Shown: positions 12,020 through 58,900 of the stretch, piece after piece
Layout of the letters: each line of letters opens with the position of its first letter
Numbering within the stretch: the first letter of the stretch is position 1
Assembly: GCF_964194155.1 (NCBI RefSeq)
Contig: NC_135907.1
Span: forward strand, 21,142,001-21,206,000
Direction of reading: 5' to 3'
From: Cetorhinus maximus
Lineage: Eukaryota
DNA: 64,000 nucleotides
Translations under genes and position numbers: made by a program
Notes under the pieces: generated by a model
What the model was told of the DNA's origin: nothing
Seen by the model: only the letters and a program-made list of their open reading frames with translations
Database searches by the model: none

Positions 12020-12180
12020 TCTGATTGGCTCTGGGTCTCACTCCCTCCCCCACAAACCCTCTCCTCTGTTAGCTGGTGCCAGGGTTCATGGTAGATTCCT
12101 GACTGGCTATCGGGAATTGTCAATCATCATTGGTGATGTCATTCCCTGTTTGAAGACAGGATGTTCCAGCAGTATAAATA
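12020..12180 (+). promoter_or_regulatory. Class I ferritin promoter (CCAAT box, TGATGTCA ATF/CRE-like site, TATAAATA)
   Basis: GATTGGCT near 12023, TGATGTCA near 12134, TATAAATA at 12173-12180, about 65 nt upstream of the ATG. The same module precedes F3, F4, F5, F7, F8, F9 and F12. Confidence 0.75.
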
Positions 12181-12244
12181 CAAGAGCTTGTGAGGGAAGA
12201 GGTTAGATTGTTGTTGTTTGAATTTGGTTCTTACCACCAGTGAG

Positions 12245-12346
12245 ATGACTTCCCAAGTGCGACAGAACTACCACAAGGACTGTGAGGATGCTGTTAACAA
12301 GCAGATCAACCTGGAGCTCTATTCCTCCTATGTTTACCTCTCCATG
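12245..12346 (+). CDS. fth1-like: Ferritin exon 1, locus F2 (intact orphan first exon)
   Basis: [34 protein letters not shown] followed by a GTGAGA donor. No exons 2-4 of its own before the next promoter at about 15.6 kb. Confidence 0.85.
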
Positions 12347-12599
12347 GTGAGATTTGTATTTCTTTTCACTGCATTCTGAAAAGTTGGAATTTCTCCAGTT
12401 TAATAAAGTGACTTTATAAACTCTATTTCTTTCCACTTTCTCTGGGGTGAAAGTATCATTGAGCAGTGAGTGCTTCCAGTGTGTAATACAGGGTGATGTG
12501 GAGTCAATGGACTGCTCCTTGTAGTAGCTGCTCTCCATTGAGAGGTTTAATAGATGAAACTAGTTCAGCTGCTCCCTGAGTTTGTAACTGATGAGCACA

Positions 12600-56803: not shown

Positions 56804-56959
56804 TCAGTCACACTCCCCCAGGGTGAGCTTGTCAAACAGGTACTCTCCCATGCCTTTCTCAGGGGCTCCCAGTCTCTTCAGGTTGGTGATGTGATCTCCA
56901 AGCTTCTTGATCATCTTCACTTGCTCATCCAAGTAGTGAGTCTCCAGGAAGTCACACAG
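56804..56959 (-). CDS. fth1-like: F14 exon 4
   Basis: [51 protein letters not shown]. Confidence 0.92.
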
Positions 56960-58673
56960 CTGGAACAGAAAAACTAAGTGAGCCTTGGAGATAGGGTTGC
57001 AGTGCAAAAGACTAGTGACAACATTCAGTTTAAGTGGCTCCTTTTATTGGAGGAGGACCAAGTGACACTTCCCAAAATGTGGAACATAATTCAATAACAG
57101 GAAAGACAGGTTGAAGTTTACCAACACTTGGGTACAGATATACTCTTGGTCAGCTGTATGTAATGGCCCAAAGAGATGATTACTCAAGTGAATTGGAAGA
57201 CAAAGTTACTGGTGGTTTTGCAGCATTCTGAATAAGACTGCAAGGGCATTTTCATCTTCTAGCAACAGTCTGTCAATCAGGAAATTTCATCCTGCCAGTC
57301 AAAGCATCAGGAACTTACATGAGGGTCAGTTTTCCCAGTGGAGAGCTTGTGCAGATCCAGCAGACTCTGGTTCACATTCTTCTCCATCTGCAGAGCTCTC
57401 TGCATTGCCTCCAGACCATTACCCCAATCATCCTTCTCTGGTCTCTGAGGAAAAAAAAAAAACCATCACAGAAATTCATGAATTCAATTGAAGACTGCAA
57501 CAACCTCGAGGGCTCCTACCCCAAAGCAATGGATTCTGTGCAAGGCAGTATGTGATAGGGAGGGGACTATTCCAAGTCCATGATTAAGTTATAGGCAACA
57601 GCACAAAAAAACTGATGATCTTAAAAACAAAAGGCCACCTCCAAGTATGAGAATCAATGAAGATGTAATCTCACTAGAGAAGATGGACATTCAACAAATT
57701 AATGGGCCATCAATTCTAGAATTAAAAAGTTTTTTTTTGGCAAAGGGATTGCTGTTTTAGACTTGAAATTTAAGCTTTTTCTCCCAAGTCCACCAACACC
57801 ATCCACAAAGCAATACAAGCCAAAGAAGCTTATTCTGTCAGAAAGGATACCTTGACATCCTCCAGGATGATCCGGCCTCCACGTTTATTCTGGAATTTCA
57901 TCAGTTTCTCAGCGTGTTCCCGTTCCTCATGCGACTGCTCCTTGAAGAACTCAGCAAAGTGACGCAGGGCAACATCATCCCGGTCAAAGTAAAAGGACTG
58001 CGGAGAAAGCAGAAGTTAAACTGCAATAGAATAAATTTCAGCATCTACAATTGCAAGTGATCTCATTACTGAGAAAATATCATGAAGTGCCAACTTTAGT
58101 TTATATATATTTGGAGCAGTCAGCAATTCTACTAAAAGTTGAATATTCACTTTATTCATATTAGAATGAGTGACTGAATTTAGTCATTAGGGGACTCAAT
58201 CAGCTGGAAAGACAAGTCTTCAGCCTAGCCTACCGCCCCCTGCTGGTAAGTGAAATTACTACTGATTCCAGGTGTAAGAGCAAGTTCACCAATGTCATGT
58301 GCAGGAAGTGTATAACCAATAGTAAACTATTCTCAAGTTAGTTAATTACAATCACATACTTGAAACATCCACTTTTAAAAGTGACATGAATTTGGAAAAT
58401 CCTACAGTCAAATCCATACCCTTACAACTAGTGGCAAACTAGAAGTACAGGAATTGGTTCCCATTTGAAGTTTAAGCCCCCCACATATGGCAACTAGGAA
58501 GCATATATCCTTCTAAGTAAAGGCTAACTTAAGAGATAGAAGTCAGTCACAGAGTGAAGAGGATTGCATACCATGGAGAGGTAAACATAGGAGGAATAGA
58601 GCTCCAAGTTGATCTGCTTGTTAACAGCATCCTCACAGTCCTTGTGGTAGTTCTGACATACTTGAGAAGCCAT
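56804..58673 (-). CDS. fth1-like: Ferritin heavy-chain-B/M-like gene F14, complete ORF, 176 aa
   Basis: Exons 58572-58673, 57851-57997, 57319-57444, 56804-56959; all GT-AG and in frame. AATAAA at 56718-56723 (minus). All ferroxidase ligands present. Confidence 0.93.
57319..57444 (-). CDS. fth1-like: F14 exon 3
   Basis: [42 protein letters not shown]. Confidence 0.92.
57851..57997 (-). CDS. fth1-like: F14 exon 2
   Basis: [49 protein letters not shown]. Confidence 0.92.
58233..58246 (-). promoter_or_regulatory. CTCF-like motif in intron 1 of F14
   Basis: Minus strand CCAGCAGGGGGCGG, close to the CTCF core consensus CCAGCAGGGGGCGC. Confidence 0.55.
58572..58673 (-). CDS. fth1-like: F14 exon 1
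   Basis: [34 protein letters not shown]. Confidence 0.92.
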
Positions 58674-58758
58674 CTTAATTTCTATTGAGTTTAGATGATC
58701 ACAAAAGTCTACCAACTAGACTTACCCACTCTAACTGCTGTGGTAGTAAGGAACAACA

Positions 58759-58900
58759 TATTTAAACACATGGACAACCCAGCATTTACATAACAGATAA
58801 TGAGTGACAGTTATTGGTAGCCAATCAAAACTAACTTGCCTCAAGCAACCAATCCACAAACTTATTAATTAATGAATTGAGCATTGGATGAGCCAATCAG
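58759..58900 (-). promoter_or_regulatory. Class II ferritin promoter (TTTAAATA box, multiple CCAAT boxes); paralogue at 52609-52750
   Basis: TTTAAATA at 58759-58766 (minus); AGCCAATC near 58819 and 58891. Largely unalignable to class I apart from these boxes. Confidence 0.65.

Follow-up and report, generated by a model that had tools for sequence, protein, structure and literature searches.

The locus raises the question of whether a large family of shark ferritin genes operates outside translational control by the iron-responsive element (IRE) and the iron regulatory proteins (IRPs) and, if so, what role such a family would play. IRPs have no means of blocking translation of an mRNA that carries no 5' IRE. 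The original prediction held that ten promoter-bearing ferritin copies carry no IRE, that the family is therefore uncoupled from IRPs, and that it forms an undescribed system driven by gene dosage. We analysed the window, by which we mean the whole 64-kb stretch of DNA (G000:C30:21142001-21206000), together with fetched flanking DNA and related loci elsewhere in the genome.

Organization of the ferritin array

The window covers the middle part of a tandem array of ~290 kb (G000:C30, about 21.077 to 21.366 Mb, from the window plus fetched flanks), and ferritin exons are spread over its whole length. Among the 39 gene models in the array region, 20 pass our intactness test and 19 fail it. An exon-2 search of the genome returned 69 matches, and further, smaller ferritin clusters lie on C2, on C15, and at 15.9 Mb on C30. 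Near its end, the same array includes an IRE-bearing ferritin gene, whose ATG (21314557) is 109 kb away from the window. FTH1 on C9 is the second IRE-bearing gene recovered. Glycogen synthase and Bcl-2-family genes occur on the array contig at a distance of 4-5 Mb and were not assigned as GYS1 or BAX.

Ten exon-1 copies were located in the window, at 12245 and 15811 on the forward strand and at 23515, 26906, 30356, 34594, 36843, 48281, 52519, and 58673 on the reverse strand. The span originally claimed, 12173 to 58766, runs exactly from the first to the last of their TATA-like boxes. Two of the ten (34594 and 58673) are intact four-exon genes. The other eight are broken, which the original prediction does not mention: reading frames are shifted or interrupted by stops, the ATG is lost, or exons are absent. 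The ferritin features, in window coordinates, are as follows.

4390..5320, forward: broken copy, exons 2-4 (exons 2 and 4 carry deletions); exon 1 falls immediately outside the left edge of the window
12173..12346, forward: orphan exon 1 copy; type-A TATAAAT at 12173; ~42-nt 5' UTR without an IRE; exon 1 at 12245-12346
15758..21109, forward: broken copy; TATA-like box at 15758; small deletions in exon 1, which runs from 15811; exons 2-4 at 18488, 19005, and 20966
21838..23587, reverse: broken copy; TATA at 23587; ATA replaces ATG at 23515; stop in exon 3; exon 4 absent
26847..26982, reverse: promoter and exon 1 fragment (60 nt); TATA at 26982
27979..30432, reverse: broken copy; TATA at 30432; exon 1 at 30356; exon 2 absent; stops in the exons 1-3 region; exon 4 truncated
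32939..34673, reverse: intact 4-exon copy, 173 aa; type-A promoter; TATA at 34673; ATG at 34594
35200..36912, reverse: broken copy; TATA at 36912; exon 1 frameshifted by +2; no acceptor left at exon 3; exon 4 absent
39514..39657, reverse: detached exon 4
40406..41231, forward: inverted fragment without a promoter; partial exon 2, exon 3, and exon 4 with a stop
46806..48357, reverse: broken copy; TATA at 48357; exon 1 at 48281; frameshift in exon 2; stop in exon 3
50890..52614, reverse: broken type-B copy; TTTAAAT at 52614; ATG at 52519; +1 frameshift in exon 2
56804..58766, reverse: intact 4-exon copy, 176 aa; exons of 102/147/126/156 nt; type-B promoter; ATG at 58673; no IRE
63571..63726, reverse: exon 4 of the next intact type-B copy, a gene that starts right of the window at G000:C30:21207468 (L010)

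For the copy at 12245, exons 2-4 are absent before the next copy begins.

Absence of IREs from the family

When the entire window was searched against Rfam with cmscan to E=10, 16 weak matches were returned, and no IRE model was among them. A scan for CAGWGH with C8 and a 5-bp stem found nothing on either strand of the 64 kb, nor did a relaxed-loop scan of the 1 kb upstream of each of the ten copies; the loop patterns in these motif scans are those we take to be typical of IREs. Over the fetched DNA, the strict scan detected an IRE in 0 of 37 family 5' regions compared with 2 of 2 control genes. Those controls, FTH1 and the array gene, were recovered by the same scans at 42.6-42.7 bits. The predicted lack of an IRE is confirmed for all ten promoter-bearing copies. 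The array contains a single Rfam IRE: a further 300 kb of array loci added no match at the gathering score, with the two 10-kb end loci covered by the motif scan alone. As the genome-wide Rfam search scored 82 candidates, the species has at least two IRE-bearing ferritin genes.

Folding agreed with these scans, giving z=-3.0 for the IRE of the array gene and z=+0.55 to +0.94 for three window 5' regions. Bare CAGUGA/CAGUGU hexamers occur in two UTRs (12245 and 34594) without a stem. Four non-canonical matches to the strict scan were obtained in 454 kb, in keeping with a rough chance estimate of about 2; none reached the Rfam cut-off where scanned. One of them is situated upstream of an intact copy, at a distance of 3.8 kb. 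As for a possible origin of the UTR motif GTTTGAAC from the IRE 3' arm, the UTRs align unconvincingly with the leader of the IRE gene.

Promoters and mRNA 5' ends

The TATA-like boxes lie 72, 53, 72, 76, 76, 79, 69, 76, 95, and 93 nt from the ATG, in copy order, and this range of 53-95 nt bears out the short spacing proposed. Eight window copies share a type-A promoter (TATAAAT), and those at 52519 and 58673 have a diverged type-B promoter whose TTTAAAT is not homologous to it. Because the position homologous to the type-A TATAAAT is degraded in these two copies, any start site assigned to them is conjectural. Across 32 family promoters, the mean number of CCAAT boxes per 260 nt is 3.2, versus 0.75 in the background. 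The E-box signatures of oocyte genes are not enriched in the family. A CPE-like element, scanned for with a pattern we presume to be representative, was found in 0 of 19 family 3' UTRs. As a separate observation, the 58673 copy and L010, both type-B, are 100% identical over 250 nt upstream and 86-87% identical in introns 2-3, a pattern that identifies, at the level of sequence, a recent conversion tract across their promoters.

Dispersed retrocopies served as stand-ins for mRNAs. Of 20 counted, 16 derive from the IRE-less family (one being a 77-nt fragment) and four from FTH1; the IRE-bearing array gene contributed none. This ratio partly reflects ~20 parent genes versus one. L061, to which no ferritin mRNA model matched, was left out of the count, and two weak dispersed exon-2 matches, two further dispersed matches, and one more C2 copy lie outside the set of loci analysed. 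Heritable retrocopies require germline or early-embryo RNA, so the 16/20 share suggests that the family is expressed in the germline.

Ten of the 12 family retrocopies aligned at the 5' end are colinear with the genomic UTR, without a break, and four family retrocopies end at -40 to -45, that is, 30-38 nt past the TATA box. The FTH1 retrocopies retain the IRE in all four cases, the two longest ending 27-31 nt past the TATA-like box of FTH1. These 5' ends suggest that mature family mRNAs had a short, unspliced leader without an IRE. The type-B UTR appears in none of the family retrocopies aligned. One retrocopy, L048 (G000:C8:62.10 Mb), has a 5' end just 9 nt past the TATA box of its parent, which points to an upstream, TATA-independent start and thus to some transcripts beginning further upstream. 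The 250-nt flanks of L047 and L048 had no match in the 454 kb of array DNA at E<=1. The possibility of an upstream exon supplying an IRE was rejected, as none was seen in the retrocopies or in the 454 kb of fetched DNA. Two retrocopies have full-length open frames: L043:732-1262, from the family (176 aa), and L049:740-1273, from FTH1 (177 aa), the latter with a damaged IRE loop.

With no IRE, no upstream IRE exon seen, and IRE-bearing ferritin genes present separately, the family is very probably off IRP control, as the sequence evidence indicates. This upholds one half of the original proposal; the other half, that copy number sets output, fits poorly with eight of the ten window copies being broken.

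Protein features and ancestry

Family genes have four coding exons (102/147/126/147-156 nt) with GT-AG introns and encode ferritin-domain proteins of 173-176 aa. No signal peptide, transit peptide, or N-terminal extension was found in the family proteins, the in-frame ATG lying ~45 nt from the inferred start. The fetched regions contain 19 intact family copies, 16 of which, including both window copies, retain all of E24, Y31, E59, H62, E104, and Q138; these we take to be the ferroxidase positions, transferred from human FTH1 via the FTH1 of this genome. E59, equivalent to the ferroxidase Glu62 that FTHL17 has lost, is present in 19/19. Both the 34594 and the 58673 proteins thus keep their ferroxidase residues, the former with a proline in helix A (Q20P).

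The best protein matches of the family are shark ferritins throughout, with PF00210 in every listed homologue. Named shark proteins are 84-93% identical to the family, a ray protein 83%, and a chimaera protein 79%, and these relatives and the family form one clade in a quick tree (SH-aLRT 93). The family occurs in every shark group sampled as well as in a ray and a chimaera. In the same tree, whose basal forks are open, the C9 gene clusters with the H chains of skate, chimaera, teleosts, and amniotes (SH-aLRT 95), and the family falls outside. The family shares its array with a non-H IRE gene, against which dN is 0.18 and dS 1.6, and it is a likely candidate member of the M/L ferritin lineage.

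At the position equivalent to R23, in the NCOA4 site, 16 of the 19 intact copies have K and the other 3 have Q, while both IRE genes have R; the D90 equivalent is E in the three family copies aligned and D in both IRE genes. This arginine is reported to be needed for NCOA4 binding in human FTH1 (PMC11076521). We regard the R-to-K/Q change, which is conservative, as a lead suggested by the alignment.

Evolution of the copies

Compared with the family majority codons, pN/pS was 0.58 in intact copies, 0.59 in broken copies, and 0.53 in retrocopies (Fisher p 0.49-0.93), counts that share ancestral changes and are not independent. This comparison of intact, broken, and retroposed copies gave no sign of purifying selection on single intact copies. 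The gene-dosage claim is therefore unsupported as stated: most window copies are pseudogenes or fragments, and recent changes in the intact ones are no more constrained than those in broken copies or retrocopies.

Over 120 pairs, identity at fourfold sites is 0.955 versus 0.75-0.77 in introns 2 and 3 (shuffled baseline about 0.70), and sequence identity drops within 10-15 nt of each splice site. In the quick tree, copies mostly cluster by species group. Homogenised exons next to diverged introns suggest old duplicates under exon gene conversion, with steady birth and death.

Relation to known ferritins

Ferritin clusters have been reported in the Greenland shark and the great white shark, with copies labelled FTL/FTH1, the Greenland shark cluster being described as at least 250 My old and as specific to the ovary in its expression (10.1101/2024.09.09.611499). 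These are likewise large, ancient tandem expansions in several clusters and are very probably the same system, judging from inferred orthology. In contrast to the labels of the preprint, the copies studied here form a separate IRE-less clade distinct from true FTH1, about half of them broken. The words "IRE" and "iron" occur 0 times in the main text of that preprint. Describing the system as undescribed was thus an overstatement, given the published shark expansion with its ovary expression and the IRE-independent ferritins and tandem ferritin expansions already known. We found no published statement on IRE loss in the shark family in a search of openly accessible literature and the main text of the preprint. 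The expansion itself is known, but within that search we came across no account of its pseudogene load, homogenised exons, separate ancestry, or lack of an IRE.

By our analysis, the family would most likely work in the manner of snail yolk ferritin (Biomphalaria, Lymnaea), which is reported to have no IRE and to provision eggs beside IRE-type soma ferritins (PMC10799875). The snail protein differs in possessing a signal peptide and an insertion of 42 aa. Both are absent from the shark proteins, which would therefore be made in the iron-storing cell itself. The fthl27 genes of the hadal snailfish are also tandem and multi-copy, with a dosage effect proposed, but their expansion is described as recent, broadly expressed, and tied to ROS tolerance (PMC10746142); the name fthl27 is absent among the 120 matches listed for the shark family. 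FTMT is likewise outside IRE/IRP control, yet it is intronless and has a mitochondrial leader, while the shark copies have three introns and no leader (PMC7760355). FTHL17, a germ-cell ferritin with six genes in mouse, is reported to be without ferroxidase activity, unlike the shark copies with their ferroxidase residues (PMC7760355). The H and M ferritins of Atlantic salmon share the 4-exon/3-intron structure and ferroxidase centre, but all five isoforms are reported with a 5' IRE and the shark family has none (PMC4117605). Ferritin mRNA is reported to be abundant in vertebrate ovaries generally (PMC1488847). The family is thus none of FTH1, yolk ferritin, FTMT, or FTHL17.

Proposed function and alternatives

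We favor, with a probability of roughly 60%, an ovary/oocyte ferritin family of cartilaginous fish that is off IRP control and evolves by birth-and-death with gene conversion. Family mRNAs would be translated irrespective of IRP1/IRP2, leaving output to transcription, and expression would be mainly in ovary and oocyte, as the retrocopies and the Greenland shark report suggest. Cytosolic ferritin made before the iron supply arrives could then stockpile and detoxify iron for egg and embryo, which seems to us the most likely role and a fairly probable one, with the two IRE genes handling iron-responsive housekeeping. Copies would arise and die quickly, each of them redundant, with exon gene conversion keeping the protein uniform, and copy number would represent a buffered pool with no finely selected dose.

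The proposed site of expression has a competitor. Some type-A promoters contain GGGAATTGTC, presumably an NF-kB-like motif, and epigonal immune tissue comes with shark ovary samples, as would suit a somatic stress or immune ferritin of epigonal myeloid cells, liver, and epithelia that is without an IRE and transcriptionally induced like teleost fthl27. The snailfish offers a precedent in its 14 mostly tandem fthl27 copies, which are high in most tissues and ROS-protective (PMC10746142). The lymphomyeloid epigonal organ surrounds the ovary in sharks (PMC5568229), so a signal from ovary samples may have a source other than the oocyte. Against a somatic ferritin stand the family origin of most heritable retrocopies (16/20), the Greenland shark cluster reported as ovary-specific (10.1101/2024.09.09.611499), and the rarity of ARE-like motifs among family promoters (3 of 32; the IRE gene itself contains one). 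We consider a somatic ferritin unlikely. Selection on gene dosage, with copy number setting output and every copy counting, would account for 19 intact copies, a multi-copy state found across shark orders, and homogenised exons of the kind typical of bulk-product gene families. However, 8/10 window copies and 19/39 array-region models are not intact, intact copies drift at the pseudogene rate, and at least three of them are without one ferroxidase residue, which makes this explanation rather improbable.

The same pseudogenes, along with repeat insertions and recent changes that look neutral, could instead mean that the array is largely decaying duplication debris, its IRE loss functionless, and that one or two copies, if any, matter. 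That is hard to reconcile with a protein about 90% conserved across sharks, a chimaera relative, dN/dS of about 0.11 against the IRE gene, abundant retrocopies, and a promoter core retained even in a distant second cluster, and we judge it very unlikely. Hidden IRP control, exerted by a non-canonical IRE or by way of a non-coding exon further upstream, is less probable still, to the point of being barely credible. All ten window UTRs have an AG at or near their end, directly before the start codon, that could act as an acceptor, and L048 begins upstream of the predicted start, but the IRE gene too has AAG before its ATG, and the colinear retrocopies, the unmatched L047/L048 flanks, and the single Rfam IRE in the array all argue the other way.

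If the ovary/oocyte reading is correct, it offers a mechanism for a reported but unexplained shark feature, the large ovary-expressed ferritin clusters, which would represent a third lineage that left IRP control, neither FTH1 nor an ordinary IRE-bearing gene. Maternal iron loading in very large vertebrate eggs would become testable, and a locus with an IRE-bearing and IRE-less pair would provide material for studying IRE loss. This lineage split is masked by the names that automatic annotation assigns, namely heavy chain A/B, oocyte isoform, and middle subunit. A bolder version, which we hold as doubtful though possible, is a dedicated oocyte ferritin dating from before the shark-chimaera split, in a histone/rDNA-like array whose many copies are homogenised by gene conversion confined to exons, and cut from both iron feedback loops (no IRE, altered NCOA4 or ferritinophagy site). 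Such a ferritin would be a vertebrate counterpart of yolk ferritin, locking egg iron until the embryo releases it.

Other ferritin loci and repeats

The second cluster, L031-L037 (G000:C30:15.85-15.91 Mb), is IRE-less, with a promoter homologous to that of the main family, a protein about 71% identical, and E58 changed to K beside the ferroxidase site. Three of its eight models are intact, and it forms its own clade with sequences of other sharks, sister to the main family in the quick tree. L018 (G000:C30:21292182, reverse) and L023-L041 (21345846, forward) are two divergent single intact ferritin genes without an IRE, with altered ferroxidase residues and long branches. L019 (G000:C30, exon 1 near 21299756, forward) is an intron-containing ferritin gene without an IRE whose 5' region is GC-rich. 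Its in-frame 58-aa leader, Arg-rich and with no acidic residues, resembles a mitochondrial presequence and is the sole reason that our intactness script scored the gene as broken; from its sequence, L019 is a possible non-retroposed mitochondrial ferritin.

Within the window, a G-rich/C-rich inverted repeat at 10137-10211 gave several weak miRNA-model matches far under the cut-offs. Decayed LINE fragments, which we take to be CR1-like, lie at 12700-15200 (forward), 16350-17270 (reverse), 7060-8510 (reverse), and 59860-60240 (reverse), the first interrupting the ferritin copy at 12245. A GC-rich retroelement at 43712-46153 (reverse), presumably Penelope-like, has a YIDD reverse-transcriptase motif and a GIY-YIG-like C-terminus.
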